Shown here in pieces: positions 8,653-42,194 of a stretch of DNA of 64,000 nt (positions are counted from its first letter, which is position 1; each line of letters opens with the position of its first letter). The notes beneath the pieces were generated by a model. The model was not told where the DNA came from, did not search any database, and saw nothing but the letters and a program-made list of their open reading frames with translations. Both the position numbers and the translations under genes were made by a program. The stretch is taken from NCBI GenBank assembly GCA_025823825.1, contig GCA_025823825.1_4720.1. The stretch is one strand, 5' to 3'. The stretch comes from a phage.

Positions 8653-9984
8653 TTATTTCTGTTCTGCGTCAGCCGGTTTCTCAGCCGTCTGGCCGCCGTA
8701 CTCTTTCAGCATTTTAGCAACGCCATCCAGAACAGCATTACCTGCCTGAACACCGTACTTCATCAGGCTAACCTGCGGGTTGATGTAGCAAGAACGTGCG
8801 TCTTTCAGTGCAGACAGCACGGTTTTAACACGCTGTTTTTCCTGAGCAGAAACTTCGCCTTTCTTAGACAGTTCAGCTTCCATATCGTCGCCGAATTTAA
8901 CGGCGTCTTTGAAGCCCTGGGATTTCTTACCGATGTTACCTTTCGCAGCCAGCAGTTTATCAGCCAGTGCTTCAACACTGTTGATCACCGCAGCCAACTG
9001 GTTCGGGGACAGTACATCAGCTTCCTGTTCCATCGCGGTGATTGCGTTATTACCGCGTTCCCAGGTAACTTTACCGTCGGTGGTTTTGAATCCCCAACCG
9101 TTCGGACCTTTCACATCAGCGATCGCAGGTGCGTTCAGTTTGTCGGTGTACTCAGTATGTGATTTAGACTTAACGAGTTCAACGAATTTATCCGCACGAT
9201 CGTCAGCCGCCTTCATTGCTTTCTCGAAGGTATCTGCGATTTTGCTTGATGCGCCAGCGATATCGGTATCGCCAATGTAACCGGTAACAGTGGTGCCCAG
9301 TTTAACTTTCGCGTTCTTCGGAGAGCCTTTACGTTTGGCGATCATTTCTTTCAGTTTAGCCGCACGCGCTTTCAGTTTGGTTGCACCGTCGAAGATACGA
9401 TCGATGAACTTCACGAAGTTGTCCCAGGTGGATTTCAGGAAGTTCTTAATTGCGGTCCACAGTTTCTGCCACCATTTTTGTTCTTCCAGGAAGATCATGT
9501 TGGTTGCATCGTAACGGGAAGCGGAACCGCCGAAGCTTTCGAAGGACGGCATGGTTTCCGGCAGTTTGAAACCGATAGTACCACACAGACGTTTCAGATT
9601 ACGCATGTGTTCCTGAGCGGTTTGTGCAGACATACCGCCGTCTTTCAGGTAGCTTTCGGTCGCAACAACGGTTTCCGTCAGTTCATCCATGGCTTCGTCC
9701 ATGGCTTCTGCGGTTTCGTCGTCTTTTGCAATTTCGATAACAACGGCATCAACCTGCTCGATATCACCACGAACTTCGATAGCCAGTTCGGTTTCAGCTG
9801 CGGTATCTTCAGCAATTTCAGCACGTTCGGTCAGTTCAGCGACAACGGTTTCATCCGCTGCTGCAGCATCAGCTGCCGGTTCTGCTTCAACGGTTGCCGC
9901 TGCATCCGGATCGATTTCAGCAGCAAGTTGAACCAGCTGTGCGTTAGATGGATTTGCGACAAGACGATCAAAAATAGAAGGCAT
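8653..9984 (-). CDS. hypothetical protein with very acidic Ala/Glu-rich N-terminal third (443 aa); possible distant member of the same family
   Basis: ATG with AAAGGA RBS; N-terminal 100 aa dominated by A/E/D/T; TAA stop at 8653. Confidence 0.75.
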   Translation of the reverse strand: MPSIFDRLVANPSNAQLVQLAAEIDPDAAATVEAEPAADAAAADETVVAELTERAEIAEDTAAETELAIEVRGDIEQVDAVVIEIAKDDETAEAMDEAMDELTETVVATESYLKDGGMSAQTAQEHMRNLKRLCGTIGFKLPETMPSFESFGGSASRYDATNMIFLEEQKWWQKLWTAIKNFLKSTWDNFVKFIDRIFDGATKLKARAAKLKEMIAKRKGSPKNAKVKLGTTVTGYIGDTDIAGASSKIADTFEKAMKAADDRADKFVELVKSKSHTEYTDKLNAPAIADVKGPNGWGFKTTDGKVTWERGNNAITAMEQEADVLSPNQLAAVINSVEALADKLLAAKGNIGKKSQGFKDAVKFGDDMEAELSKKGEVSAQEKQRVKTVLSALKDARSCYINPQVSLMKYGVQAGNAVLDGVAKMLKEYGGQTAEKPADAEQK

Positions 9985-10049
9985 AATTTTGTTTCCTTTA
10001 CAATAAATTGCACATTAGCTAATGCGGCTTAAGTGAACCGTCAGTTCAC

Positions 10050-10580
10050 TTAAAAGCCCTTAAAACCCGGTGCCATAGGTTGCCCAAACACCGCATTCAA
10101 AGTACATATGATGTCCTGGATACCATTGTCCCAATGGAGCCAAGTACGCACCATCTCTTCGTCTGACAACGCGATATAACTCATAAGTTTACCGCTGCTT
10201 TCCAGACGTTGGTGTGAACTTAACGATTGACGATCTGACCAGTTATCAATCAGTTGTCCAGCAATCTGAACGTTTGTGTCTCGTCTACCCGTGTGAATGA
10301 ATCGTAGCGTATCACGGATAAACTCCAGACTGGTGAAGTTCAGATTTGGGTTATGGCTGTTCATTTCCACCCAATCGGTGATGGGGTACATCAAACGATA
10401 AAGGGTAGAAAGAACCTGACGCTCATATTTCCAATCATCGAGAGGAGTACCGTCGACCAAACGCTGATACAAACTAACAACGTCACGATCGTAGTTCTCC
10501 TGGCGTTTTACGCCGTTAACCGGAAATCCAAAGAACCCGGTACCGTATAACGTTAAAGGGACGTCACGAAGTGCACTCAT
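10050..10580 (-). CDS. hypothetical protein (176 aa from internal ATG)
   Basis: Track start 10712 is TTG and would overlap upstream gene by 136 nt; internal ATG at 10580 forms an ATGA overlap with the stop of 10577-11479. Confidence 0.6.
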   Translation of the reverse strand: MSALRDVPLTLYGTGFFGFPVNGVKRQENYDRDVVSLYQRLVDGTPLDDWKYERQVLSTLYRLMYPITDWVEMNSHNPNLNFTSLEFIRDTLRFIHTGRRDTNVQIAGQLIDNWSDRQSLSSHQRLESSGKLMSYIALSDEEMVRTWLHWDNGIQDIICTLNAVFGQPMAPGFKGF

Positions 10581-11479
10581 ACAGCCGCCTCTTCTTTTCG
10601 TTTGATGTCGTAACGAAGTTTCTTCAGCCTGTCTTCGTGATATTCGATCTGCTGCTGGATTTTTGGATCGTTGCCCGCATTCTGTTGCTTTTGCTTCAGT
10701 GACAAAATCCAATACTCCAGCGCTTGGGCTTCTTCTTTGGCTGCTTGTAATGATGCTTCTTCACGTTCGCTGCGCCAGATACGGAAACGGTAAACAAGCG
10801 TGTCGGTTACATCGCCGTTAGCCCACGAACCCATACGCATCGGGTCAGTATTACCCGCATTGTACAATCCGTTACCAACACCGTCTTCATCAGAAACCAC
10901 GACATCCGGGATTTTATCCAATCCAGCAAGGATCTGTTGTTTCTGTCCACATAGCACCTCGGTGGCAACGGCGAAACCGTACATATTGGCGGTCAGGTAA
11001 GCAATCTCGTTTTTGGTGAAGAACTCACCAAGTGCTTTATCACCACCCGGCATGCTTTCGCAGATGACCGTCGCACGAAGCAGCGTACGAGCGTAGCTAA
11101 CGTAGAAGCCCAGAGACTCAACAAGACGTACCAGAGCGGCTTCTTTGAAACTCAGACCGTCAGCAGCAACATCGATTTCCAGGTTTTTGTTAACGCGTTT
11201 AACAATTTCTGGAATCAGATCAACAGCATTACGTAGCGCTAAGTGAACGTTTTCTACCCAGCTTCCAGAGCGAACGCGGGTTAAACGCTGGTGCAGATCC
11301 TTATCAGCAAGTTTCCATAGGGCGCTTTCACCCTTTTGGAGAAGCGAAGCGGATGTCTCGTAGTAAGGAATCGCGGTGTTGTTGATTTCGTCACGGATTG
11401 ATTCGAGTGCGTCAGCAACACCTGTGCGTTTAAAAAGCGGCTTCAAACCGCGAATGAATTCTTTAAAATCAATTGCCAT
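10577..11479 (-). CDS. hypothetical protein (300 aa)
   Basis: ATG with AGGTG upstream; no recognisable motif. Confidence 0.75.
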   Translation of the reverse strand: MAIDFKEFIRGLKPLFKRTGVADALESIRDEINNTAIPYYETSASLLQKGESALWKLADKDLHQRLTRVRSGSWVENVHLALRNAVDLIPEIVKRVNKNLEIDVAADGLSFKEAALVRLVESLGFYVSYARTLLRATVICESMPGGDKALGEFFTKNEIAYLTANMYGFAVATEVLCGQKQQILAGLDKIPDVVVSDEDGVGNGLYNAGNTDPMRMGSWANGDVTDTLVYRFRIWRSEREEASLQAAKEEAQALEYWILSLKQKQQNAGNDPKIQQQIEYHEDRLKKLRYDIKRKEEAAV

Positions 11480-11518
11480 GAGTGAGCACCTATGCTATTT
11501 CGAAACAGGTTGCGAGTG

Positions 11519-12625
11519 TTAACGAATCTGTGGGACGTTTCCGGTACGGAGCGCCTGGAGGATCGTCAGGAGATCGGAACCCGAGGTTGACGAACTGTTG
11601 GATTTTTCCAGTTGCTTGAAGCTTACGGTGGTCCCTTGATCCAAGCTGTGGAAATAGAAGGTCACCATCTCTTCAGCTTCGTCGATGATGATCAACTGCA
11701 TTGCGAGGGCTTCAGCCATGACTTTCTGACGTGTGTTATAGTCAGATAAACGACGTCCGATCTTACGCTCGATGGCTTCCTGGTTAGCCTTAGAGATGAT
11801 ATAGGTGGAGGCGATTGCTCCAGAAGAAGGGATCTTTGTGCTCGCTGCAGCTTTTGCGGCATTGATGCGCGCAGCATTAACAGCCTTGCGGATACCCTCT
11901 TTATCCATACGTGAGATTCGTTTATGCTCACGAACCAGATCGCTAAGCAGGATCATATCGCTCCAGAAAGACAGCTCACCAGCCATCATGCGATGCCAAC
12001 GTGCTCGCCAGGTGTTCTGTGGGCCACCGATCGCTAAAATCGCTGCAAGCACTTCCGCCGGTGAACTCGCGATACGCATGCTGATGTTCAATGGCATTTT
12101 CATCGTTGCCTGACCATCGGTCAGCGTCACGGTTAAGAACTTGCCGGTGACCGCGTTCGCATCTTTGTTCAGCAATTCGATCGCTGCGTCGCTGGCTCCA
12201 ACATCGGTGCTATTTTTTTGTTTCCCCAGCAGGTTGAATCCTTTGTCATCAAGGAAAACAAGGCTTTTGCTATCCGCACTTTCCAGTGCTAATTTGACAG
12301 CCTTATCCATCAGATTAGCGTTACGATTTGGGTTCACACGACCCAGCGTTTTATCGACACTGATATTACCCACCTGCATGATGGTGTTCAACGCCAGTAA
12401 ATAGAACCCGGTATACATGTTTTCAGCGGTGCGCATGCAGTTGCCTAACGCATTGCGTGCGTCGCTATAATACAACTCACGTTCAAAGATCAGCGGTGCG
12501 ATAACGCGTGAAGGTTGTGAGAGTTCAACCAGCGAACCTGGCTGGATAAGTTTATTAACTTCGTAGACTTTAGCGATACCGGACGCAACAACGTTAACAG
12601 CGTCGGCAATTTCTGATGCTACCAT
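11519..12625 (-). CDS. hypothetical protein (368 aa)
   Basis: ATG with AAGGA RBS; start is only about 34 nt from the divergently oriented start at 12660. Confidence 0.75.
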   Translation of the reverse strand: MVASEIADAVNVVASGIAKVYEVNKLIQPGSLVELSQPSRVIAPLIFERELYYSDARNALGNCMRTAENMYTGFYLLALNTIMQVGNISVDKTLGRVNPNRNANLMDKAVKLALESADSKSLVFLDDKGFNLLGKQKNSTDVGASDAAIELLNKDANAVTGKFLTVTLTDGQATMKMPLNISMRIASSPAEVLAAILAIGGPQNTWRARWHRMMAGELSFWSDMILLSDLVREHKRISRMDKEGIRKAVNAARINAAKAAASTKIPSSGAIASTYIISKANQEAIERKIGRRLSDYNTRQKVMAEALAMQLIIIDEAEEMVTFYFHSLDQGTTVSFKQLEKSNSSSTSGSDLLTILQALRTGNVPQIR

Positions 12626-16924: not shown

Positions 16925-19717
16925 TTATCTTACGTTATTGCTATTCTGTTGTTCACTGAACCAACCATACACCTTGAGATCGGTACCGTATTTCAATGCG
17001 ATATACGCATTCAGCGCAGCACAGAACAAAGACGCGAATGCCCATATCAGCGAAGGATCAACATCTTCCGTTACCACTGGGAGAGTATTATCCGGTTCCC
17101 ATGATGGTGAACTGTCCATGAACGTCGCGTACCATCCCCGCCGTTGTTCTTCGGTGGTAAAGTCGCTGTGGGGTTCCAATGCTTCTTTTGCCAGACGTCG
17201 ATATTCGAACATATGCGTTGCTAAAGCCGACGAGTTACCAGATTCGCCTTCATAGTTCGGATCCACCGCATAACAGAGTTCTGTTGAATCTAACAAAGCA
17301 ACCGCCTGTGTGATGCTGTCGGCAGTGCCTGCACCATAGAGCTCGATAGACCGCGAAAGCTTCTCACAGAACGCATTTAACGCGGAAGGATTGGACACCT
17401 GAAGGTCAAGGCCTAATGTCCACGGATAGTTACTGAATACACCCGTAAACCGTGGCATAACACCCAACAGATGCTGTCCGATTACAGCGCGGTTATAAAC
17501 AGCCCTGTTATAGACTTGAAACGCAGCCTCCAAGGCTTGGTTATAATGACGACGAAGTTCGTCACGCGAGTTGCGGAATCTGTTTGCCGCGAGACTCGTG
17601 GCTGCGACGCTACAAACATCGTAATTGGTGGACGAGAGCACAACCTCGTTAAGATCGAACGCTTCCTGTTTCAATGTTCCGCTAACAGCCACCGCTTCGC
17701 TGTTCGCTTTATCGACAACAGTACTCAAAGCGTTGATGTAACGCTTAGCCCGGACTTCCAGCCATTGTGCGATGCCGAGAATATCCACCGCAGCTTTAGC
17801 AAGATCGCGAGCATTCACGATTTCGTTCTTCAACGCCCCTAAATCTTTATTTTCAGGCGATGAGGCTTGTTGACGAATCATGCTGTTCAACATGGTAAGC
17901 AGATTATCCAACTCATGTCCACTGACCTTGTTACGTGCATCGGTAATCGGCCCTTGCAGGAATTTACGGCAACCATCGTTGTATCGAATCAGTTTATCCA
18001 CATCGATAGATTCGTTCGTGGATTCCTTGAACTGATTCTTCAATTCTTCACGGTAATCATGGATTTCACTTGCGAGATTATCGATAGTGATACCGTTATG
18101 TCCAAGAAGAACTTTATTGAAGTTACCTTTCTCGAATGCCAGAGCAAGACCTTCACGAATCTTAGCGAGTTTATCCTGATCGAGTTCACGACCGTTCGAT
18201 AGCTCTTTCACTTCCGAGCTGATTAATGCCGAAACGTTACCCAGATTGTCGGTAACCCCTTTGAACGCTCCCGACCAAATCGTTCCTGCTTCAGCGTATT
18301 TCGCAATGGTCTGAATACCGACGGTGTGCAGCGACGCTAAACGTTTCTTCGTGCCTTCGGTAAGCAGAGCGTCTTTAGCTCGCGTAAGCTGACTGTTATT
18401 AGCTTCTGCCTGCTGAATCGCTGCTTTCGCACTTCCATTACGCCAGCTCTTAACCAGCCAATCAACCAAACGTTTTAGGATATTGACGGTGTATTCCATT
18501 GTCCGCCGTAACGTTTCCCACGCGCTTTCTGCGGTATAGATGCCGTACCCTTCCATCTTCGTTGGGTCAAAGAAACCTTCCTGCATGAGATCAATACGGG
18601 TGTAGCCATCAGCAGCTTCTACTTCCGCCTGGGTTTTATCCCAGAAGTCGTCGCTCTTTGCAGCAACCGCTGTATCTTTAACGTCCAGGATGATCTGACC
18701 AACCGTTTGTGCAAACAGCAAGGCCGCACGTACCGATTGTGCGAACATCCGCTGATATTTGATTCGAACGCATTGCATCTGGGTTAGCAGATTCAGTTGT
18801 GCGATCCCATCCAAGGTGCTATCCTGAGCAAGCCCTTCGGCTTTAGCGATAACCTGTTTTACACGTTCAGCGACATCACCATACTGCTGGCAAACATCCC
18901 GCAGAATACGTGCCGCGAAGACCCCGGTACCGATATAGTTCAATAGGTCTTTTAACGACCATTCGGTCGGACAATCGGTCGGCGCAATAGGGAGTAAGCA
19001 ACCATCACCGTCCATGAATCTCTCTAATGCGCTAATATCCTGATTTTCTACGCTCATGGGGATATCGACATCAGCCGCTTGCAGATCCAGCATCTGTTGT
19101 AGGATGTTGGTATCGGCTTGTACAAGCGTCGCAAGCGCTTGGCTGTGTGCGATTATTGGTAACGCAGGTGACCATACTGCAGCAAGCTTGTCGGCGTGAC
19201 GTTGAATGGCATACCCCATATCCTCGATCACATCGGGATGCTCGATAACCCCCTGAAGCGTTTGATGTAGCTCACCGAGTTGCTGAGACAGATCGACCAT
19301 CATGGTGTTGAAGGTTTCGCCATCCTCTTTGTGGTTGTCCAGACGCTCGAGTTCATGTCGAAGCAATGTGACGAGCTGTCCGTTGCCTTCTTGCTTCAGC
19401 TTGCTTTCCATTAACGTAATGGCTTTATCGACGATCTGACACGCTTCACGAAAACCGGTTGTGGAAGGAAGCTCTGTCCATAACGCCAGCGGTTTACCGT
19501 CAAGGGCTTCCGGCATCGATAACGAAAGCATAGACAGTTGTTGACGTGATACTTGCTGTTCACGGTGTAGTGTTTCTTTTAACGCCAAGAGATCGTCAAG
19601 AAACGCGCCGTTAAGGGTGGTCGTACGCGGTGTTGAATTAATACCGTCAGTTAACGATTCAAGCACCAGGAGACCGTTATCAGCTGAAGAGAGTCCCGCG
19701 GCAAGATATTTGTTCAT
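16925..19717 (-). CDS. large hypothetical protein (930 aa)
   Basis: ATG with upstream ACGGAG; long uninterrupted frame. Confidence 0.8.
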   Translation of the reverse strand: MNKYLAAGLSSADNGLLVLESLTDGINSTPRTTTLNGAFLDDLLALKETLHREQQVSRQQLSMLSLSMPEALDGKPLALWTELPSTTGFREACQIVDKAITLMESKLKQEGNGQLVTLLRHELERLDNHKEDGETFNTMMVDLSQQLGELHQTLQGVIEHPDVIEDMGYAIQRHADKLAAVWSPALPIIAHSQALATLVQADTNILQQMLDLQAADVDIPMSVENQDISALERFMDGDGCLLPIAPTDCPTEWSLKDLLNYIGTGVFAARILRDVCQQYGDVAERVKQVIAKAEGLAQDSTLDGIAQLNLLTQMQCVRIKYQRMFAQSVRAALLFAQTVGQIILDVKDTAVAAKSDDFWDKTQAEVEAADGYTRIDLMQEGFFDPTKMEGYGIYTAESAWETLRRTMEYTVNILKRLVDWLVKSWRNGSAKAAIQQAEANNSQLTRAKDALLTEGTKKRLASLHTVGIQTIAKYAEAGTIWSGAFKGVTDNLGNVSALISSEVKELSNGRELDQDKLAKIREGLALAFEKGNFNKVLLGHNGITIDNLASEIHDYREELKNQFKESTNESIDVDKLIRYNDGCRKFLQGPITDARNKVSGHELDNLLTMLNSMIRQQASSPENKDLGALKNEIVNARDLAKAAVDILGIAQWLEVRAKRYINALSTVVDKANSEAVAVSGTLKQEAFDLNEVVLSSTNYDVCSVAATSLAANRFRNSRDELRRHYNQALEAAFQVYNRAVYNRAVIGQHLLGVMPRFTGVFSNYPWTLGLDLQVSNPSALNAFCEKLSRSIELYGAGTADSITQAVALLDSTELCYAVDPNYEGESGNSSALATHMFEYRRLAKEALEPHSDFTTEEQRRGWYATFMDSSPSWEPDNTLPVVTEDVDPSLIWAFASLFCAALNAYIALKYGTDLKVYGWFSEQQNSNNVR

Positions 19718-19776: not shown

Positions 19777-22581
19777 TTAAGCTAATTTACCGAAACCGGC
19801 TTTCTGCAGTTTCTCGTTGATCAGTTTTGCTTCCGCGAAAACATAATCACGATACGCAGTCACTAACGCATCCACACGTGAACGCAAGGCTTCTTCGAAG
19901 CTATACCACGCAGCGATTTCACGAATCTGTGCGTTGATATAATCAACGGTTGAGCGAAGCTCGGTTGCGTTTTCTTGCGGGATGGCTTTCACCTGGCGAG
20001 CAACGTCATTTAAACGACGGAACTGCGTTTCGATTTCTTTAAACTTACTGTCGGCAAGTTTGCTGAATTCGTCACCGGAACGTGTAAATAACAGATAGCT
20101 GTTGCCGTCAAGTGCGGTCGCTAACTGCTGAAGTACGTTGGTGTCCGGATACACAGGAGTACCGCTTTGCAATACTTTCTCACCGAATTCCGCGAAGTCC
20201 TTCGGCGGTAAGTGCGCAGACGTTGTCAACTCGTTGAAACGGAAAGTCAGCGAATTGTCATACAGCATCCGGTACGCTTCCATGCCCTGTTTCATGGTAC
20301 CAGCCAGGTTGGCCAGACGCGGAGCAATCTCACCCTCTTTAGCGCGTTTCTGGTCTTCTAACGCCCCTTCCAGTTCTTTACACTGGTCATTCAGATACAC
20401 GATACGATCGGGACGCAGACGACGCATCTCACGAAGAATAGTATCCAGCTTACCTTCCTGGAAATAACCCAACGTTAAAGACGTACACGCTTGCTGAAGA
20501 CGATCGAAGACCGGTAAGGTCACCATCTCCTTACGGATACCATCAACAATCGCAGAAACAGCCGAAAGTTTCTGTTCTGTCGTTAATGGAACATCAGAGA
20601 CCGACTTGCTGGGCGCACCAACAACGTTACGCATTGCGTCGGTATCCTCGGTTTTATCAACCTCTTTACGAACATGCTCATCAGGAACATAAACGTTCGC
20701 ATTACGTTTCGCCTGCTTGATGGCATCGTTGGCCGCTTTTTCGGTGGCTGCTACGCTATCGGCACGTTTCTTCAAGAGTTCAATAATCCAGAGCACCAGA
20801 CGACGAATCGCAGTGTAGGCTGTCGTGATGATGACACCGATAACCGCCATCTTCATGATACCGAACGATTCCATGGTCGGCTCTAACGCCTGGTCGGGCA
20901 TATACCGTTCACGCAGCTCCAGATAGATCTGCTCATCCGGTTTGCTGATCTCGCCACGATGCGAAGTCCGATAGATGGCTTCGTCAATCTCAACAAGATC
21001 TTTGCGTGCCTGACGGTCTGTTTCGGTCAAATAAGCGCAGCCGGATACGTCGTCTTCAAAACTTTCGAACTTAAAGAAATCGACAACCATCTTGGCAAGC
21101 GCCTCTTTCTTAGCAGGATCGAGTGTCTTCGCATCTTCTTTTTGCTTATCCATTTTTTCCTTGAATTTCTCTTTGTAGTCATTCAAGGGTTTTACCGCTC
21201 TTGCTTTCAACGCGTTATAGATAGCTTTCCACTCATCGTTACGTTCGAGGACAATGAAATGGTTTTTGAGTTCGAAAGCGCGATAGCGTGCAACGAGCTG
21301 TTCTACCTGAATATGAGCGAGTTGGATATCCATTAACCAACGCGACATCGCCGAGATCAAACGGCTATAAGCGAACAACGTTTGGTAGGTTAACTTCATG
21401 TATGTTTCATACAGCTCAATATCGCCGCTCTGAATATTGGCTGTTGGATTCATTTCCTTTGTTGCCTTGAAGACCTGTTCTGCTTCTCTCAGCGTCTTTT
21501 CGAACTTAACGTCATTAAACGCAGTGAATGGTTCAGCCAACTCATGCATTTTATCGTGGAGTTCGCGGATCCAAGCTTCCTTGCTGTCGCGGATGGTGTT
21601 TTCATCATGGAGCACGGTTTGATGTTTTCGTACCCATTCTTCCACGATATCAGCAGCGGAAACAATCGGAACGCGATCTGAAATGAGCGGGACGATCGTG
21701 TGAAGCGCCCCGACACATTCTGGCGTGTCCCAGTGTTTCTGGAGTTCATCACGGAAACGGTTAATGTTTTCTAAGGTGGTACCTAAATCAAGGAAAGTGC
21801 CGCCATTATGACTCATCTGTGCAACCAGATCGGCAAATACCTTTTGTTTTTCGATGACAAAAGGAACCATCCGCATAAGCCATTCAGCAGTTGCTTTAGC
21901 CTTTTCTTTCAGGTTCTTATCAGCGATTTCCTTAAGGTTAATCGCGCTACCGTATCCAGCAAGTTCGTTGTAGACGTCGTTAAGCGTCATTTGTTTATCC
22001 AACATTTCTTTGAAACGTGGATAATCTGCACCTAACGCGTCGATGACTTCTTGGATGATGTCGTCTGTGGTAGCGATAAATTTATTTGTGCCGCCGTAAT
22101 GCTTCCAGATTTTCTGCAGCGTCTTCTTAAAGAATTCGAAGACGAATGTCCAGATACGTTTGATGAGTTCCCAGACTTTCTTCGCACCATCGACAAACAG
22201 TTTAGAGACCTTGGCAACGAATCCTTCCTGCACTAACTCAACGCCGTTACGTGATGGGATTTCCGTGAAGAAAGCATCTGGCAGTTGTTTCGGGAACGCA
22301 TCACCAAGACGCATACGCAATTCGGGTACATCGGCACGAGAAATACCACGCGTCGTTAGCTGCTCGTGAAGACGAACGTTTTCTTCACCAGAGGCTACGA
22401 ATTCGTTAACGTCAAATGAAACCAGTTCTTGATCTTCGGTGGTAACGACGCTTGAACCATCGCTGGTTTGGATGTCTTCGTCAGGGAACGCCATGAGCAT
22501 ACCGTGACGCATTTCAACCACTCCGTAATCGGTTGCTAAACCGAATTCGTTGTGATCGGGGGTAATAACTGGGATACTCAT
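19777..22581 (-). CDS. large hypothetical protein (934 aa)
   Basis: ATG preceded by AAGGAGAG; ATGA overlap with stop of 22578-23018. Confidence 0.8.
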   Translation of the reverse strand: MSIPVITPDHNEFGLATDYGVVEMRHGMLMAFPDEDIQTSDGSSVVTTEDQELVSFDVNEFVASGEENVRLHEQLTTRGISRADVPELRMRLGDAFPKQLPDAFFTEIPSRNGVELVQEGFVAKVSKLFVDGAKKVWELIKRIWTFVFEFFKKTLQKIWKHYGGTNKFIATTDDIIQEVIDALGADYPRFKEMLDKQMTLNDVYNELAGYGSAINLKEIADKNLKEKAKATAEWLMRMVPFVIEKQKVFADLVAQMSHNGGTFLDLGTTLENINRFRDELQKHWDTPECVGALHTIVPLISDRVPIVSAADIVEEWVRKHQTVLHDENTIRDSKEAWIRELHDKMHELAEPFTAFNDVKFEKTLREAEQVFKATKEMNPTANIQSGDIELYETYMKLTYQTLFAYSRLISAMSRWLMDIQLAHIQVEQLVARYRAFELKNHFIVLERNDEWKAIYNALKARAVKPLNDYKEKFKEKMDKQKEDAKTLDPAKKEALAKMVVDFFKFESFEDDVSGCAYLTETDRQARKDLVEIDEAIYRTSHRGEISKPDEQIYLELRERYMPDQALEPTMESFGIMKMAVIGVIITTAYTAIRRLVLWIIELLKKRADSVAATEKAANDAIKQAKRNANVYVPDEHVRKEVDKTEDTDAMRNVVGAPSKSVSDVPLTTEQKLSAVSAIVDGIRKEMVTLPVFDRLQQACTSLTLGYFQEGKLDTILREMRRLRPDRIVYLNDQCKELEGALEDQKRAKEGEIAPRLANLAGTMKQGMEAYRMLYDNSLTFRFNELTTSAHLPPKDFAEFGEKVLQSGTPVYPDTNVLQQLATALDGNSYLLFTRSGDEFSKLADSKFKEIETQFRRLNDVARQVKAIPQENATELRSTVDYINAQIREIAAWYSFEEALRSRVDALVTAYRDYVFAEAKLINEKLQKAGFGKLA

Positions 22582-23018
22582 GCATTCTCTCCTTGCAGTG
22601 CGTTAGCGAAAGCCGTTGCAAGTTGCGCAACCAGTTTCGGATCAACGCCTTCGATAACGTCAGGCAGCCCTGCGGTTTCTTGGTCACGAACAGCGGAGGC
22701 TAATAACAGCATGGTTTCAGGTGCGGTCGGCTCATGCACCATGCGGTAACGCAGGCACCAGAAGTAGCGAGCAACGTCTAACGCATCAGCCAGCCCGATA
22801 ACCAGTACCTTGTTCAGCTTATCCAGCCCTTCACGGATTTTAGGGAGATGTTCGCGAACGAAAATGCTATCTGCGGTCAGATCTTCTTTTTCAGCGAATA
22901 CCGGCATGCTGTAACCGGCGATGTAACCAGCGGCAATACTTAACGCGCGGGTCTGTTGTTCGGCTGGGAAGTCACGTACCAGGTCTTTCAGCTGAACGGC
23001 GAAATCAGAAATATTCAT
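22578..23018 (-). CDS. hypothetical protein (146 aa from internal ATG)
   Basis: Internal ATG (MNISDFAV) has AAAGGAA 8 nt upstream and avoids overlap with 23050-24360. Confidence 0.6.
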   Translation of the reverse strand: MNISDFAVQLKDLVRDFPAEQQTRALSIAAGYIAGYSMPVFAEKEDLTADSIFVREHLPKIREGLDKLNKVLVIGLADALDVARYFWCLRYRMVHEPTAPETMLLLASAVRDQETAGLPDVIEGVDPKLVAQLATAFANALQGENA

Positions 23019-23049: not shown

Positions 23050-24360
23050 TTAAGCGATAATGGAATCAAGAGTCGCTGCGGTTTTGAACAGATCGCTGTT
23101 CATTGTAGAAGAAAGGACTTGCTGAATTTCTTCCTGTTTAACGGCTTTACGAACTCCAGGACGAAGGATAAGCGTAACAATCTGCATAAATGTACGGTTG
23201 TTGTTCATCGCGCTTAACGTTTCATCAATTGTTTTGATGGTATCTAACGTAGTGGAGCGTATGTCGCTAGGGAGGTCACGATCTTTCAGACGTATAATCA
23301 AATCTTGTTTGATTTTTCTGAATCGTTCCATATCGTTGTCATAGATGCTGTATGTCGGATCTAACCAAACTGCAAGCGCCATAGCAGCAACAAATATTGC
23401 CATACCAAGAATATTAACCGAGGTGAAGCTGATCGCTATCAAAATTGTCACGGCTGCATCTTTAATGAAGGAGAGCCAGAACATCGTTTTTGACTTCATG
23501 GAGTTGGTGCCATAAAGTCGAAACATTTTAGCAAGCCCGCTAACGAGATACTCCCCACTGCCGTGACGCGTAGCGAACTGATCGGCCATGAATTCGGAAG
23601 CAACGTCGGTATATCGTCCAGCGTTGTTTACATTTCTTAACTGCATCGCTTTGTTAGACACGTAAACCGTGTACCAGACACTACCGTCGTCTGAATCACT
23701 GATTTTGTCTACGTCGACGTTGGTATCCAACGTTTTGTTTAACGCTTTCGCCAGTTCGATACGTTTTACCTTATCGGTTGTTCCCAACAGTTCGCGCTGC
23801 ACGGTCATGATTGAGGCTTCGACACGAACCGTTTCCGACAATGTTTCAAGGAAGGTAAATGCGTGCCCGATTTCATGCAGCATTATGGCTGCTTTTTCTT
23901 CCGGAAGAAAGGGTTCTGTTGCTGTTAGCAATTCATACGTGATGGCAGAACGAATCTTCAATTCTTCAAAGATACCGTAAACACGACCTTTTTCTAAATC
24001 GACGTAACCGACAGGTGTATCTTTAATCTTCTTAAGGAGCGTAACACCATCAGCACCACGCATCCATAACCGGTGATAGTCTGCCAGGATTGTGTTGTTT
24101 GTCGAAATATCCGGCGGGTATACGTAGGCATTCATCTGACCCATTTTCACGTCGACCGAGAATTCGATGTTCAACCCCGTATAGCGTTTGACCATCTTGG
24201 TTAAATGACCGTCCTTGAAAACGTTTAAAACATCTTTTTTATCCAGTCCCTGTTTGCTTCTGAAGAACTCGGTCATTTCCTTGAACAAGGAACCATCCTG
24301 AAACTTGATGGCCTCCATCGTTAATTCGTCATGACCATACACGCGTTGTAGTAATGACAT
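23050..24360 (-). CDS. putative zinc metallopeptidase-like protein with HExxH motif and C-terminal transmembrane hairpin (436 aa)
   Basis: HEIGH zincin signature (MLHEIGHAF); about 40-residue hydrophobic stretch FWLSFIKDAAVTILIAISFTSVNILGMAIFVAAMALAVWL. Confidence 0.7.
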   Translation of the reverse strand: MSLLQRVYGHDELTMEAIKFQDGSLFKEMTEFFRSKQGLDKKDVLNVFKDGHLTKMVKRYTGLNIEFSVDVKMGQMNAYVYPPDISTNNTILADYHRLWMRGADGVTLLKKIKDTPVGYVDLEKGRVYGIFEELKIRSAITYELLTATEPFLPEEKAAIMLHEIGHAFTFLETLSETVRVEASIMTVQRELLGTTDKVKRIELAKALNKTLDTNVDVDKISDSDDGSVWYTVYVSNKAMQLRNVNNAGRYTDVASEFMADQFATRHGSGEYLVSGLAKMFRLYGTNSMKSKTMFWLSFIKDAAVTILIAISFTSVNILGMAIFVAAMALAVWLDPTYSIYDNDMERFRKIKQDLIIRLKDRDLPSDIRSTTLDTIKTIDETLSAMNNNRTFMQIVTLILRPGVRKAVKQEEIQQVLSSTMNSDLFKTAATLDSIIA

Positions 24361-24372
24361 TGTACACTCTCT

Positions 24373-24390
24373 AAATTTACGTAAATTTAA
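24373..24390. promoter_or_regulatory. perfect 18-bp AT-rich palindrome TAAATTTACGTAAATTTA in divergent intergenic region
   Basis: Self-complementary 18-mer about 13 nt upstream of the 23050-24360 start, inside the 220-nt gap separating it from the PolB-fragment gene. Confidence 0.4.
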
Positions 24391-24581
24391 GGGCTAATGG
24401 ATCGGCTGGCCGCACCAATCACAATGTGTTCGTTGCTATGCAACGGCATTCATAGAAATACCTTTTGACGGTAACATCACCCATCACACCCCAAGCAATA
24501 AGAGTGGTCGGTTAAAAACAACAGAACGTGAGGATGATATAGAAATTCACCTTTTAACACCTATTACGAGTTTAGCAAGCC

Positions 24582-26333
24582 ATGAGCGAACAAGAACGAA
24601 AACCTAAGAAGAAACTGCTCGGTATTCAATGTCGACACATCAGTTATAACGAAGCGAACGATGGCAGCAAGAACGACCTCATGATCGCAAAAGAGATCAT
24701 GTTCTTTGATGACAATACGCAAGCGACGAACCTTCGCTTCTTTGAGAATTACAAACGTCCGTTTTGGGTGACGGTAGAGAGTAAACGTAAGAACAAATAT
24801 AAAAAGGAAAGCGAGAAGCTCTCGCATGTGCGTCGCTACGATGTCCGCCAAAGCGAACTGGTTGAAAAGATCAGCTCGGTACTTTATAAAAGACGTGCTG
24901 ACGATAACACCCGTTTACAGCAGCTTGCACGGAGTCCATACCTCTATGGAACGGACGTTAGCGCCAGCTGTTATTTAAAAACCCAGTACAACACAAAATG
25001 GCCGGAATACGTCGATAAATTACCCGCTTCCATTGCCTGTTTCGATATCGAAACCGACGTTGTCCACGGACACGGTAAGATCGTTTGTATGTCTATTACA
25101 ATGGGATACAATGCGATACTTTGCTATACCAAGGACTTCGTTGGTCATATTCCGAATGCCATTGAGAAAACCCATGAGAAGATTCGATATTACCTGGCCG
25201 AACGTCTGAATACCAAAGAAGATCCCCACGCATTCGAAAAATATCAGTACGATGTTCGAATCGTAGAAAGCCCGGCACAAGCGGTCATCCAATGCATGCA
25301 GAAGGTTCACGAATGGCAGCCGGATTATCTCCTTGGCTGGAATATCGCGTTCGATATTCCGCGTATGCTCCAGGCACTGAACGAGGAAGGGTATCGTCCC
25401 GAGGATGTTTTCTCCGATCCTCGCGTACCACCTAAGTATCGTATTGCTCGCTGGGTGCCACCGAAGACCGACAAGGTATCTGCTTCAGGTCGTAAAACCA
25501 ACCTTACCCTCGAGCAAACCTGGCCGATGTTTTATACGATGGCTACGTATCAGGTTATGGATGCGATGTGTGGTTATAAGTTCGTTCGTTTAGGAAGACC
25601 GGATGAAGGACGCTATTCACTCGATGCGGTATTAGAGCGAAATAAATGCCATACGAAATTAAAAGCAATTCCTGGTACAGAAGGGTTCACGGAGCTCGCC
25701 TGGCACGAAGAGATGCAAACGAACCATCAAATCGACTACGGCGTATATAACCTTTGGGATAACCAGGGTATTGAGGCGTTGGACCAGAAAACAAAAGACT
25801 ATTCGATGACCATCCCTATCCGTTTAGCGGCGTCGGATTTGAAAGATTTCAGTTCTAACCCTAAACGTATCTGCGATAAACTTTTCTTCGTTTATCTTAA
25901 CCGTGGGGAAGTCATGGGATGTACCGCTGACGACATGACCCAGGAAGAAGATAAGTGGGTTATCTCACGAGCTGGACATATCGTCACATTACCATGCGAT
26001 CTCATGGCTGACAACGGCATTCATCTCTTCTGGGATATGCCGAACCTGAGAAGTTATATCCGTCTATTCGTTGCAGACCTTGACATTAGCAGTTCATACC
26101 CAAATGGGCAGATCCTGTTGAATCTATCCAGAGCATGTGTTTTTCGTGAGCTCTCGCGCATTGAGGGCGTCTCTGACTATCAATTCAGGAAGTTAGGTAT
26201 CAACTTTATTACCGGAGGTAAAACGAACGCTGTAGACTTCTGTAGAATCGTTTATAAAGCACCGTCGATGTTTGAACTTTTAGAACATTTCGATGCGACG
26301 CGTCCAAAAGAGGAAGCGCGGACCATCGAATGA
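24582..26333 (+). CDS. family B DNA polymerase N-terminal part: 3'-5' exonuclease domain plus palm motif A; motifs B and C absent (583 aa)
   Basis: Exo I FDIETD, Exo II WNIAFD, Exo III-like YNLWD, motif A-like DLDISSSYP; ORF stops about 75 aa after motif A with no KxxxNSxYG or YGDTDS. Confidence 0.65.
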   Translation: MSEQERKPKKKLLGIQCRHISYNEANDGSKNDLMIAKEIMFFDDNTQATNLRFFENYKRPFWVTVESKRKNKYKKESEKLSHVRRYDVRQSELVEKISSVLYKRRADDNTRLQQLARSPYLYGTDVSASCYLKTQYNTKWPEYVDKLPASIACFDIETDVVHGHGKIVCMSITMGYNAILCYTKDFVGHIPNAIEKTHEKIRYYLAERLNTKEDPHAFEKYQYDVRIVESPAQAVIQCMQKVHEWQPDYLLGWNIAFDIPRMLQALNEEGYRPEDVFSDPRVPPKYRIARWVPPKTDKVSASGRKTNLTLEQTWPMFYTMATYQVMDAMCGYKFVRLGRPDEGRYSLDAVLERNKCHTKLKAIPGTEGFTELAWHEEMQTNHQIDYGVYNLWDNQGIEALDQKTKDYSMTIPIRLAASDLKDFSSNPKRICDKLFFVYLNRGEVMGCTADDMTQEEDKWVISRAGHIVTLPCDLMADNGIHLFWDMPNLRSYIRLFVADLDISSSYPNGQILLNLSRACVFRELSRIEGVSDYQFRKLGINFITGGKTNAVDFCRIVYKAPSMFELLEHFDATRPKEEARTIE

Positions 26334-26359: not shown

Positions 26360-26430
26360 AAAAAAAGAAAACGCATGCGAAGCCCCTCCCCCTGGCGGAA
26401 GCCGGAGGGAGGGGTGGAGGTTTTATGCGT
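26360..26430. terminator. putative bidirectional intrinsic terminator between convergent PolB-fragment gene and 26433-26879
   Basis: Hairpin CCCCTCCC-N16-GGGAGGGG flanked by T-rich tracts on both strands (TTTTATGCGTTTTTAATTATT on plus; GCGTTTTCTTTTTTTG on minus). Confidence 0.6.
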
Positions 26431-26432
26431 TT

Positions 26433-26879
26433 TTAATTATTGCTGCTGGGGTTATCGCCCGGATTATATTCGATGCTGTAGGCGACGTCGCGGTCTGTCG
26501 TATGAACGACAAGCGTGACGGGGAAATCATAATGCGCGGTTTTGTCTCGAACGAACGGGGTAAAGAGATCCGTATAACGTATTAAGTCTTCCCTGGTGTA
26601 ATCGGAAGGGAAGAAGGCATCGATGGTTATTGAATCTTCATAGAGGCGTATGATCAGCTTATCCAGAAGGTTGCTATATTGGTTAGCTGGGGTGACGTTC
26701 AGGTGACAGAAGTCACCGTCTTCTGCTTCTCGCAATACCCATACCGTGGTATCCTGTAACGTATTTTCAAGGATCTCGAAAATGCAGTTTGCTGTAAGTC
26801 TTAGTTTATTTGTTACTTCATGGTTAGGGGAATAATGCTCACGAATGTTTTTCACTGCGTCTTTGATAGAGAAAGTCAT
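26433..26879 (-). CDS. small hypothetical protein, paralog family A (149 aa from internal ATG)
   Basis: Internal ATG (MTFSIKD) with AAAGGAG 9 nt upstream; C-terminal motif HYDFPVTLVVH...EYNPGD shared with 28869, 29394, 28099 and 31238 genes. Confidence 0.6.
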   Translation of the reverse strand: MTFSIKDAVKNIREHYSPNHEVTNKLRLTANCIFEILENTLQDTTVWVLREAEDGDFCHLNVTPANQYSNLLDKLIIRLYEDSITIDAFFPSDYTREDLIRYTDLFTPFVRDKTAHYDFPVTLVVHTTDRDVAYSIEYNPGDNPSSNN

Positions 26880-26892
26880 TGCTGCTGCTCCT

Positions 26893-27186
26893 TTAAAAGA
26901 TATCAAGCCATGAGGATGGAGGAACCAGTTCGCTGGTAAAGTAATCGCCACTGATACCACTATCATCAAAGTGACGTTCGTTGTAACACTGGACGAGCTT
27001 ACCTCCACGTTCTTTCTGATACCATCCAAGGATACTATTAAGACCTCTGTCCACGCATTCGAATGCTTGAGTAATAACATCCTCAACGACGGAGGCTGCC
27101 GTGGGACCATTGAATAGACGATCTAAGCGCTTTTTCATCGATTTGGTTTTCTCGTTCATGATTTCTTTTCCTGTTATAATCGGCAT
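26893..27186 (-). CDS. small hypothetical protein (97 aa)
   Basis: ATG start; RBS candidates inside adjacent hairpin arm (GGAAGGG) or internal AGGAAAAG before a second ATG. Confidence 0.55.
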   Translation of the reverse strand: MPIITGKEIMNEKTKSMKKRLDRLFNGPTAASVVEDVITQAFECVDRGLNSILGWYQKERGGKLVQCYNERHFDDSGISGDYFTSELVPPSSWLDIF

Positions 27187-27190
27187 ACAA

Positions 27191-27222
27191 CCCTTCCCCG
27201 GCCTTGACGGCTAGGGAAGGGG
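27191..27222. repeat. GC-rich extragenic hairpin element, degenerate copy (CCCTTCCCC...GGGAAGGGG)
   Basis: Imperfect stem, flanked by GGCATACAA...CTATGC. Confidence 0.45.
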
Positions 27223-27235
27223 CTATGCTACGTTG

Positions 27236-27634
27236 TTATGCTTCGCAATCAGCTGAAGGCGTCGCGCCTTTCTTACCAGCGATACGCCAAATCCGACACG
27301 CTGGGTAATGGTTAACCTCTAGAGAGCAAGGAATGTTATATTTCTCTTCCAGCGCATAAAGACATTTCGTTAGCTGCTCCAGCGCGTTCTCGTCGTGTCG
27401 TAACGCGTGGTGACCTAATCGATGTTGGTCGTTCTTTATATACGCCTCGAAGAGAACATGTTGGCGATGTACGCTGACGTTTACAGCCTCGAGTATAGCT
27501 TGGTCGAGCATACGACTAAAGCACATCAACGAGTCAGATACGTTTTCTCGCTTAACCAGATCGATCATGGCGGGAATATACGAATGGTCGATGTTATCGA
27601 TGACCGCTTTAGCGACGGAATCAGCAACGTTCAT
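27236..27634 (-). CDS. small hypothetical protein, paralog family B (132 aa from internal ATG; track start is GTG)
   Basis: N-terminus MNVADSVAKAVIDNIDH aligns with MSIVESIVKAVNDNIDH of 27671-28066; shared C-terminal EEKYNIP(C/F)SLEVN. Confidence 0.65.
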   Translation of the reverse strand: MNVADSVAKAVIDNIDHSYIPAMIDLVKRENVSDSLMCFSRMLDQAILEAVNVSVHRQHVLFEAYIKNDQHRLGHHALRHDENALEQLTKCLYALEEKYNIPCSLEVNHYPACRIWRIAGKKGATPSADCEA

Positions 27635-41530: not shown

Positions 41531-41552
41531 TAAAAACCTCAGCCCTTTAGAA

Positions 41553-42194
41553 TTAGATGTACTGCTTACCGCCCACGAAGGAAGTTAACCAGTTCCCGCT
41601 GACGAGTTGTGATACCCAACCTGGAACGGCTCTACCATTCTGGCTCATGATGTTACCACACCAACCAGGGAATCCGGGACGGATGTAATAGAAAGTTAAA
41701 TTGTAGAGATGGCAATTCCATACCGCAACGTTATGTTTACCAGAAACCGCTTTAAAGATAAACGCGACAGGTAACGGAGACGATAACAATTCGGTCACAG
41801 GGACGGCTGACCAGTTCGCATTCGCGTTCCATGGTTGCCAGGTATGGCTACGCGAGTCACCGTTAACGTTACCGTTGCTACCGCGTCCGCCCGCGTTCCA
41901 CCAAAGCGATGGACTCATGTTCTTAAGTGAGGTAAATTGCTGTGGTGGAATATTCGGAATGATAACAGGGTTGGTACCTTGTCCGTGTTTCTTTTCTTTT
42001 GCGTTCACATAGCCGTTTATCGATTCCAGGTATTTGGTACCAGGATAATTGTTCTGGACTTGTGTCGCAATATCACGAACATCGAACGTCCAGCAGATCA
42101 TGGTGTTGTAGTAAGCATCGGTGTTGTCGTACCATGCGTTACCATCTTGTAAACGTGCGCCACTATTCGGTGTTTTATCTGTGTTTATAGCCAT
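41553..42194 (-). CDS. hypothetical protein (213 aa), paralog of 42306-43022
   Basis: C-terminal IRPGFPGWCGNIMSQNGRAVPGWVSQLVSGNWLTSFVGGKQY nearly identical to neighbour. Confidence 0.7.
   Translation of the reverse strand: MAINTDKTPNSGARLQDGNAWYDNTDAYYNTMICWTFDVRDIATQVQNNYPGTKYLESINGYVNAKEKKHGQGTNPVIIPNIPPQQFTSLKNMSPSLWWNAGGRGSNGNVNGDSRSHTWQPWNANANWSAVPVTELLSSPLPVAFIFKAVSGKHNVAVWNCHLYNLTFYYIRPGFPGWCGNIMSQNGRAVPGWVSQLVSGNWLTSFVGGKQYI

Follow-up and report, generated by a model that had tools for sequence, protein, structure and literature searches.

A predicted M48-type zinc protease among the head proteins of a Goslar-like nucleus-forming jumbo phage

After injection, the genome of a nucleus-forming jumbo phage is enclosed in a lipid vesicle and later in a protein shell; a 2025 review places both the formation of the vesicle and the exit of DNA from it among the open questions. 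Any step that precedes phage gene expression can be carried out only by proteins that the virion brings along. The protein considered here belongs to a family that is already catalogued: it is the chimallivirus core gene cg22 (Table S3 of PMC10299810), Iyer et al. 2021 describe it as a “conserved, uncharacterized zincin-like metallopeptidase”, and most records label its members just “virion structural protein” or “hypothetical protein”. The family and its likely protease nature are therefore already in the literature, where descriptions end at “head protein, unknown function” and at the wording of Iyer et al.; in the texts consulted, they do not include an M48 assignment, the ExxAD ligand, the hydrophobic hairpin or the family-wide conservation of a cleavage site. 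The phiKZ structural atlas and two recent reviews mention neither a phiKZ gp84-type protein nor any virion metalloprotease. Our finding is thus the correct recognition of a catalogued, functionally uncharacterised family.

The DNA analysed (the window) is a stretch of 64,000 nucleotides, contig GCA_025823825.1_4720.1 of GenBank assembly GCA_025823825.1, and its source is a close variant of Escherichia phage Goslar, a nucleus-forming jumbo phage. The coding sequence of the M48-like head protein occupies 23050..24360 on the minus strand, where the ORF list gives a 436-aa frame with an ATG start, at exactly the coordinates and of the length that the first-pass annotation had given; the full-length protein has a mass of 49.4 kDa, and its mature form is predicted to have one of 47.5 kDa. 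With Goslar gp067 it shares 98% identity (100% over residues 1-42), and full-length alignment to phiKZ gp84 and SPN3US gp45 gives 25–27%. It matches PHROG 2767 with E=7.6e-80 over residues 12-432 and shows full-length homology to the cg22/PHROG 2767 (phiKZ gp84) family; its orthologs are Goslar gp067, phiKZ gp84, 201phi2-1 gp145, SPN3US gp45 (itself orthologous to SEGD1 gp047, AMR59696.1) and chimallivirus cg22. By tblastn the window protein matched 253 jumbo-phage records, and at E<=1e-30 the phiKZ gp84 family amounts to 1,790 clusters that vary little in length. No paralog of the gene was found within the 64-kb window.

The catalytic gluzincin domain covers approximately residues 60-285 (23506..24183, minus strand) and is made up of a beta-sheet subdomain (strands 64-141), an active-site helix (153-193) and a glutamate helix (252-283). 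The HEIGH motif that had been noticed near residue 160 lies at residues 162-166 (23863..23877, minus strand), in the predicted active-site helix, and would supply the catalytic glutamate and, through its histidines, two of the zinc ligands. Downstream, Y250-G269 (YTDVASEFMADQFATRHGSG; 23554..23613, minus strand) contains an M48-type ExxAD motif, read as EFMAD at 256-260 on the glutamate helix, with E256 as the predicted third zinc ligand. Seven residues (H162, E163, G165, H166, E256, D260 and R265) are invariant in all 194 homologs of a set whose median identity to the window protein is 27%, as they are in a smaller set of 30. Shuffled versions of the window protein contain HExxH in 0.4% of cases and HExxH with a downstream ExxAD in 0.02%; these rates, together with the absolute conservation in the 194 homologs, rule out a chance HExxH. 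Judged from its sequence, the window protein is predicted to be a catalytically competent zinc protease of the M48 type.

The relationship to M48 is distant. A profile search against peptidase families, which the first-pass annotation had suggested, gave a divided answer: Pfam Peptidase_M48 matches 19 of 30 family members at E<=1 (best E=2.5e-5), but the window protein itself reaches only 11.6 bits (E=0.24) on PF01435, under the cut-off of 20.3. NCBIfam models did not match the window protein and gave weak HtpX matches in a few relatives, and an hhalign comparison with E. coli HtpX (70% probability) extends over 28 columns, in the HExxH region only. The protein is therefore better seen as a divergent sister branch than as a curated M48 member. 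Against ZMPSTE24, the family profile aligns at HExxH as well as at ExxAD, where Y250-G269 corresponds to the RRFEFQAD/EFQAD segment. Structure prediction, the other check that had been proposed, yields an M48-like three-dimensional fold whose neighbours in BFVD carry M48 or zincin protease annotation; a Foldseek search of the PDB returned no significant match for the window protein. Other families named at the outset (M56, M78, SprT-like) produced stray weak Pfam matches in single members (SprT-like, E=0.13; Zincin_1 in three) and were set aside, since M48 dominates.

Residues 1-16 (MSLLQRVYGHDELTME; 24313..24360, minus strand) form an N-terminal propeptide that resembles the T4 capsid-targeting sequence (CTS); the predicted cut by the prohead serine protease falls after E16, between T-M-E and A. 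The corresponding motif, [S/A/T/G]-x-E followed by [A/S], recurs across the 194 homologs, with glutamate at P1 in 192, S/A/T/G at P3 in 184 and A/S at P1' in 170. In SPN3US, gp45 is cleaved at ASE-20 by the prohead protease gp245, losing a 20-residue propeptide (PMC10052503), and it alone among the SPN3US head proteins has a propeptide of T4-CTS length. The Goslar virion mass spectrometry data contain a semi-tryptic peptide of gp067, AIKFQDGSLFKEMTEFFR, that begins at A17 (a single spectrum); the peptide across the cleavage site is VYGHDELTMEAIK. The main text of the Goslar study does not comment on the peptide starting at A17.

The link to the virion made in the first-pass annotation is upheld by published proteomics on orthologs, which support head packaging of the window protein. 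Virion mass spectrometry detected 201phi2-1 gp145 and phiKZ gp84, and in Goslar it recovered gp067 with 19 peptides, 47% coverage and about 50 copies per virion (estimate 32-76); gp067 is missing from the atomic virion model. Purified tailless SPN3US heads contain gp45. Virions retain the mature 48-kDa form, whereas mature heads contain almost no prohead protease. As with the capsid-targeting sequences of the T4 internal proteins and Alt, the removal of a short propeptide, here after Glu16, is a hallmark of loading into the procapsid core.

The catalytic domain is followed by a hydrophobic stretch of about 44 residues, 292-335 (TMFWLSFIKDAAVTILIAISFTSVNILGMAIFVAAMALAVWLDP; 23356..23487, minus strand), recognised by hydropathy and folded as a helical hairpin in the AlphaFold model (helices 291-313 and 317-333). 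The 19-residue Kyte-Doolittle average passes 1.6 in 29 of 30 homologs, always at this hairpin and at no other place in the protein; the hydrophobic character of the hairpin is conserved, but its sequence is not. On the Hessa translocon scale, used here as a crude, position-independent sum with segments below 1.0 counted as membrane-grade, two such segments were counted in just 11 of the 194 homologs, a single one in 107 and none in 76; uncharged runs have a median length of 32 residues. In the window protein, the hairpin is strong over 315-333, and its other segment, which contains K300 and D301, is weaker. A weak Pfam DUF6232 match on the hairpin (E=0.14) was taken as noise. Thus, of the transmembrane hairpin described earlier, the hydrophobic helical hairpin is confirmed and the canonical double-spanning form is not; with a hairpin of marginal hydrophobicity on the Hessa scale, membrane anchoring is possible rather than established. 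In most members the hairpin is too weak for Sec or YidC-type insertion, as one would expect if it is kept in a soluble particle. The hairpin leads into a C-terminal helical domain, residues 340-436 (23053..23343, minus strand), delimited by conservation and by the model: R346 is invariant in the same homologs, and Y340, D341 and Q413 are kept in 188, 164 and 185 of the 194, respectively. This domain is partly alignable in the homolog from Bacillus phage AR9.

The gene does lie in a block of large genes, with neighbouring ORFs of 930, 934 and 997 aa. Immediately downstream and co-oriented is the ortholog of Goslar gp066/phiKZ gp85, of the capsid-internal vertex binding complex (22578..23018, minus strand), followed by the ortholog of Goslar gp065/phiKZ gp86, another component of that complex (19777..22581, minus strand); gp42 and gp59 also belong to the complex. 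On the other side, a DNA polymerase gene (core gene cg21; 24582..26333, plus strand) is divergently transcribed. This order (divergent polymerase upstream, gp85-like and gp86-like genes, then a convergent gp87-like gene) was found in the window, Goslar, PA7, KTN4 (phiKZ-type), 201phi2-1, SPN3US, SEGD1 and three distant metagenomic contigs, and the pairing of the cg21 polymerase gene with the M48-like gene is thereby conserved in distant relatives. Scans of the operon for sigma-70 promoters and terminators gave counts at or under shuffle expectation and were uninformative; these phages use their own RNA polymerases. Transposon sequencing of phiKZ found no well-supported insertions in orf84, so the M48-like protein may contribute to fitness; the result is confounded, because orf85-86 are also insertion-free yet their deletion is tolerated. 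The published antisense screen had a target set that did not include phiKZ 084.

We tentatively favour a packaged, ejected, membrane-inserting zinc protease over a second head-maturation protease. The protein would be a catalytically competent M48-type zinc metallopeptidase, of the HtpX/Ste24/BepA kind, carried as head cargo: its propeptide would load it into the procapsid core, the prohead serine protease would cut after Glu16, and the enzyme would be kept full-length in the mature head. It would stay soluble through synthesis and packaging and most likely leave with the DNA at the next infection, when the hairpin could enter the inner membrane of the host, or the early phage infection (EPI) vesicle that this membrane gives rise to. 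Once in place, the enzyme may cut a protein lying close to the membrane, of host origin or injected by the phage together with it. It is full-length retention in the head, combined with a conserved but marginal hairpin, that makes soluble storage, ejection and membrane insertion appear the most likely course. T4 Alt and the internal proteins IPI-III are injected into the host, and, with Alt as precedent, we count the persistence of the mature form in virions for a post-assembly role. Against this reading we count the marginal hairpin, the hairpin-less AR9 homolog and the shared operon with genes of the capsid-internal vertex complex, an arrangement just as compatible with a function in the head. 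The protein sets of published injection assays did not include phiKZ gp84, our search found no injection test of Goslar gp067 or SPN3US gp45, and we found no study of phiKZ gp84 in the literature on EPI vesicles. Being conserved, packaged in the head, and equipped with an intact protease site as well as a hydrophobic hairpin, the protein is a concrete, testable candidate for a role early in infection.

A job in head maturation is the principal competitor, although we consider it unlikely on balance. Here the enzyme would act in the procapsid beside the serine prohead protease, for example by digesting released propeptides and scaffold fragments to peptides small enough to exit the shell, and the copies in virions would be leftovers. 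This is the sole published hypothesis, explicitly proposed for the phiKZ gp84 family by Iyer et al. 2021; the first-pass annotation, which also raised host envelope remodelling and cleavage of a host defence protein as equally conjectural roles, coincides with it in its idea of virion maturation. The hypothesis agrees with the head location and the core-type propeptide loading of the protein, with the deeply conserved block in which the gene adjoins those of the capsid-internal vertex complex, and with the unusually extensive proteolysis of phiKZ-like heads; were it right, these phages would have a second, unrecognised maturation protease. The AR9 homolog has the catalytic core without the hairpin, so the hairpin is not required for the ancestral function, which fits an ancestral, membrane-independent head job. 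However, all mapped SPN3US cleavage sites fit A-x-E, the motif recognised by the serine protease gp245, the motif enriched in phiKZ semi-tryptic peptides agrees with the S/A/G-x-E of gp175, and the cleavage sites described in the texts consulted include none hinting at a second protease. A maturation enzyme would also be expected to be degraded or expelled, like the prohead proteases, yet about 50 full-length mature copies stay, and the conserved hydrophobic hairpin is left with no role.

It is improbable that the ejected protein serves as an EPI-vesicle effector, in which case the approximately 50 copies would lodge their hairpins in the inner membrane where the DNA is injected and take part in shaping or sealing the vesicle or in a later cleavage; such a late cut in a vesicle or host membrane protein might let the genome into the nascent phage nucleus. 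If true, this would be the first identified phage-encoded membrane component of the first known prokaryotic membrane-bound genome compartment. Improbable as well, and slightly more so, is a factor of the assembly site, whose hairpin would tether it to the inner membrane while the propeptide linked it to the procapsid core, with proteolysis or propeptide removal aiding procapsid nucleation or membrane release before trafficking to the phage nucleus. Capsids of these phages do form on the bacterial inner membrane and must detach afterwards, a hydrophobic hairpin and a core-targeting propeptide are combined in one protein, and the lack of a signal peptide would leave both soluble domains in the cytoplasm, where heads assemble. 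Yet some 50 copies in sealed purified heads are hard to square with a stably membrane-embedded hairpin, most members have no membrane-grade hairpin by the translocon scale, and the role would be unprecedented, T4 relying on its portal protein with gp40. Finally, a purely structural head protein with a non-functional zincin motif, which would suit records that say little more than “virion structural protein” or “hypothetical protein” and an activity that is only predicted, is very improbable, as the three predicted zinc ligands, the catalytic glutamate and the flanking M48 residues are 100% conserved in 194 sequences about 27% identical, which is atypical of decayed active sites, and the ordered capsid model does not include this protein.

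The M48 enzymes (HtpX, Ste24/ZMPSTE24, Oma1, BepA, YcaL, LoiP), the best structural matches of the window protein, share with it the HExxH on an active-site helix, the ExxAD glutamate on a later helix, the gluzincin fold and the presence of hydrophobic helices. To our knowledge, every characterised M48 peptidase acts at membranes. The window protein differs in its very divergent sequence, its H-to-E spacing of 90 residues, its additional C-terminal helical domain of about 100 residues, and its lack of a signal peptide and of a lipobox. Its hairpin is weaker and comes after the catalytic domain, whereas M48 hydrophobic helices lie before or within it; and its family consists of virion proteins with a capsid-targeting propeptide, a combination unknown among cellular M48 enzymes. 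A distant homolog, AR9 g051, is annotated as “zincin protease” (pfam01435, M48) and has a similar length; its phage, also a jumbo phage, likewise packages a multisubunit RNA polymerase. The two proteins share HEIGH, a motif of the ExxAD type and, at the C-terminus, related helical domains, but g051 has no strong hydrophobic hairpin (maximum Kyte-Doolittle 1.16), a different N-terminus and a Gram-positive host. A tblastn search of the first 50 kb of AR9, which contains g051, detected no homologs of the window's neighbour genes.

Among head proteins, T4 Alt and IPI-III similarly carry a short N-terminal propeptide (10-20 residues) that the prohead protease cuts after Glu. Alt is moreover a CTS-bearing enzyme of the head with about 40 copies, and Goslar gp067 is likewise present in tens of copies; Alt is, however, an ADP-ribosyltransferase rather than a protease, with no sequence or fold relation to the window protein. 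The prohead serine proteases (T4 gp21, phiKZ gp175, SPN3US gp245) are also located in the procapsid, and in the same phages, but belong to an unrelated class (serine, S77) and cut after Glu in S/A/G-x-E, the M48-like protein being their substrate. From its cg22/PHROG 2767 relatives the window protein shows no essential difference: length, motifs, synteny, head location and N-terminal processing site are all the same.

Sequence comparison gives good support for an M48-like metallopeptidase with an apparently intact active site encoded by the minus-strand CDS 23050..24360 (ATG start, 436 aa), exactly the position and length assigned to the ORF in the first-pass annotation. That annotation's observation was also correct in setting the ORF within a block of large genes (its neighbors encode 930, 934, and 997 aa) and in reporting HEIGH near residue 160, which a motif scan locates at residues 162-166; EFMAD, at residues 256-260, had gone without mention there. 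Shuffling the protein produces HExxH in 0.4% of cases, and its combination with an ExxAD farther downstream in 0.02%. No paralog was found within the 64-kb window. Among its long ORFs just one other HExxH turned up, HESFH, in an ORF (619-1320, plus strand) that runs antisense to a 1,125-aa gene and is unlikely to be genuine.

At the DNA level the surrounding region shares ~97% identity with a nucleus-forming jumbo phage, Escherichia phage vB_EcoM_Goslar, whose gp067, recorded as a “hypothetical protein”, is 98% identical to the window protein. Homologs occur in 253 jumbo-phage records, the named orthologs being phiKZ gp84, 201phi2-1 gp145, EL gp52, SPN3US gp45, and SEGD1 gp047 (AMR59696.1, verified to be orthologous to SPN3US gp45 and homologous to the window protein over its full length). 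An exhaustive profile search returned 1,790 clusters (at 50% identity) at E<=1e-30 and 3,653 at E<=1e-3; among the best 150, nearly all cover almost the entire family profile, and 148 have lengths of 411-482 aa (the other two, 839 and 1,237 aa). The family is already catalogued: it falls in PHROG 2767 (“unknown function”), among the 72 core genes of chimalliviruses it is cg22 (“putative virion structural protein”, with no mark in the core-genome table as unique to chimallin-encoding phages), Iyer et al. 2021 had described it as a zincin-like metallopeptidase, and M48, BepA-type, or peptidase labels are already attached to the AR9 entry and to a few GenBank entries of phages. Neither of two recent reviews of nucleus-forming jumbo phages refers to a metalloprotease in the virion; the protein is better called under-appreciated than unknown.

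H162, E163, G165, H166, E256, D260, R265, R346, and G129 are invariant in 30 and then in 194 homologs (median identity to the query, 27%), with the signature Y-x5-E-x-x-[AS]-D-Q-F-A-x-R-x-G around the predicted third zinc ligand. The family profile aligns with human ZMPSTE24 at both motifs. The HMM search and structure prediction that the first-pass annotation had proposed as checks both point to M48: Pfam Peptidase_M48 matches 19 of 30 family members, with E-values down to 2.5e-5 (the query, at 11.6 bits, stays below the 20.3-bit threshold), and the AlphaFold2 model (pTM 0.76; active-site helix pLDDT >90) combines a beta-sheet subdomain with the HExxH helix and a glutamate helix. When the model was compared with predicted viral structures, full-length orthologs matched at TM-scores as high as 0.84 and, more distantly, so did “Zincin protease [Bacillus phage AR9]”, “Peptidase M48 domain-containing protein”, and “Beta-barrel assembly-enhancing protease”. 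Foldseek against the PDB gave no significant match, no NCBIfam model matches the query, and the hhalign alignment to HtpX is confined to the HExxH region. Curated sequence thresholds place the window protein outside M48; several independent lines point to the M48 type, and we treat it, as a working assignment, as M48-like in a putative divergent sister branch. The protease reading was largely right as to metallopeptidase type, which motifs, conservation, and predicted fold suggest.

The hydrophobic hairpin also noted at first pass is present as the sole strongly hydrophobic stretch by hydropathy (residues 292-335), while its transmembrane status is something we infer, Hessa-scale segments being mostly marginal. 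Hydrophobic character is conserved in this region, sequence is not: 19-residue Kyte-Doolittle peaks above 1.6 occur in 29 of 30 homologs, solely here, and the median uncharged run across 194 members is 32 residues. By the Hessa translocon scale, applied crudely and independently of position, two membrane-grade segments are present in just 11 of the 194, a single one in 107, and none in the other 76. Of the two hairpin helices in the window protein, the second (315-333) is the strongly hydrophobic one, and the first holds K300 and D301. The distant homolog AR9 g051 has retained HEIGH, an ExxAD-type motif, and the C-terminal helical domain, with no hydrophobic segment comparable to the hairpin; the catalytic core would therefore predate the hairpin, apparently an elaboration that arose in the phiKZ-like clade. 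The first 50 kb of AR9 encodes at least three distinct proteins of zincin type (11242-11877, 23162-24586, and 40783-42060), namely a DUF955 protease, a zincin-vWA fusion adjoining an AAA ATPase, and the M48-like g051, and BFVD holds a second AR9 “zincin protease” (323 aa) similar in fold to the query.

Virion mass spectrometry has identified 201phi2-1 gp145 and phiKZ gp84, and SPN3US gp45, listed as “Head, unknown function”, was found in purified tailless heads; prohead protease gp245 cuts it at ASE-20 and removes a 2.2-kDa propeptide (PMC10052503), the only one among SPN3US head proteins to match a T4 capsid-targeting sequence in length (PMC5694885). Alignment puts the equivalent site at E16 of the window protein, within T-M-E/A (slash, cleavage); across 194 homologs, P1 is Glu in 192, P3 is S/A/T/G in 184, and P1' is A/S in 170. 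Goslar virions yielded 19 gp067 peptides (47% coverage); the virion atomic model lacks gp067 and the main text is silent on it (10.64898/2026.04.21.720040). The peptide table of that study assigns to gp067 the semi-tryptic AIKFQDGSLFKEMTEFFR, which starts at A17 after a Glu, not a trypsin site; residues 1-42 are identical in gp067 and the window protein. The peptide, seen in a single spectrum, directly supports the mature N-terminus predicted at A17. The gp067 estimate of 32-76 copies per virion (median 48) can be trusted only within limits, as can LFQ copy numbers of unmodelled proteins generally, since chimallin (gp246, ~126) and PhuZ (gp234, ~171) also appear at >100 apparent copies in the CsCl-purified virions (Table S4, 10.64898/2026.04.21.720040); their signal may be either lysate carry-over or genuine association. 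It is well supported that the M48-like protein enters the procapsid, that the prohead serine protease trims it after E16, and that ~50 copies remain in the mature head.

The gene is divergent from the DNA polymerase gene and co-oriented with downstream orthologs of Goslar gp066 and gp065 (phiKZ gp85 and gp86), which cryo-EM assigns, in 110 and 55 copies, to a “vertex binding complex” at the inner side of every capsid vertex. The orthologs of gp064 (16925-19717, minus) and gp065 (19777-22581, minus), ~930 aa each, have no PHROG match at E<=1e-5. This gene order, in which the polymerase and M48-like genes are followed by a small gene, a variable gene, and convergent gp87-like and gp88-like genes, is shared by phiKZ-type phages, 201phi2-1, SPN3US, and SEGD1, and also by three metagenomic contigs with proteins just 20-30% identical. 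No well-supported transposon insertions fall in phiKZ orf84 (singleton reads only in the unfiltered table); orf85-86 likewise lack insertions, yet tolerate deletion, so this lack cannot decide essentiality. SPN3US gp47 (8900-10621 of its locus) lies two genes downstream of the protease gene, a position matching Goslar gp065; it is reported to be essential, to carry a predicted TM segment when mature, and to be probably ejected, and the SPN3US authors found no phiKZ homolog (PMC5694885). Were the two truly equivalent, the vertex complex might store membrane-active ejection proteins.

The window polymerase gene (24582-26333) is a single uninterrupted 583-aa ORF, and the window phage therefore has an endonuclease-free allele; Goslar carries, at the equivalent of 26075-26096, a 1,784-nt insertion (10078-11861 of its locus) that includes the NUMOD1/HNH homing-endonuclease gene gp069, and its polymerase is annotated as a truncated 499-aa protein. 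This allele bears on the intron-endonuclease competition described for chimalliviruses. Past the polymerase gene, Goslar similarity is absent for ~500 nt (26430-26936) and returns across 26937-27244 at just 78% identity, versus ~96-97% in adjoining genes, so that segment 26430-27244 looks locally variable or replaced. ARAGORN found no tRNA or tmRNA genes in the whole 64-kb window.

To the catalogued family we add the specific M48 assignment including the ExxAD ligand, active-site conservation quantified over 194 sequences, a prohead-protease site conserved family-wide and confirmed by a peptide undiscussed in the Goslar main text, a hairpin shown to be marginal and clade-restricted, and a copy number and vertex-complex operon tied to the question of how the early phage infection (EPI) vesicle forms and opens. 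The interest of the family is modest, and would be greater if the enzyme turned out to be an injected membrane effector.

We tentatively favor ejection of the enzyme, giving it somewhat less than an even chance; it would then target the inner membrane or the EPI vesicle. A second head-maturation protease, as published (Iyer et al. 2021), is the main rival and in our judgment a little less likely: the operon with capsid-internal vertex-complex genes and the hairpin-less AR9 homolog speak for it, but the mapped SPN3US head cleavage sites and enriched phiKZ motif suit the serine protease, and the mature protein persists full-length in the virion, unlike maturation proteases. An assembly-site role, as membrane tether or release factor, is improbable, and a pseudo-enzyme would be most improbable of all. 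Ejection is further suggested by the hairpin, which appears membrane-seeking yet mostly too weak for capture by insertion machinery during synthesis, and by the fact that, to our knowledge, every characterized M48 enzyme acts at a membrane. It is also suggested by analogy with T4 Alt and the T4 internal proteins, which are injected after head loading and reach the head by means of a propeptide resembling that of the M48-like protein.
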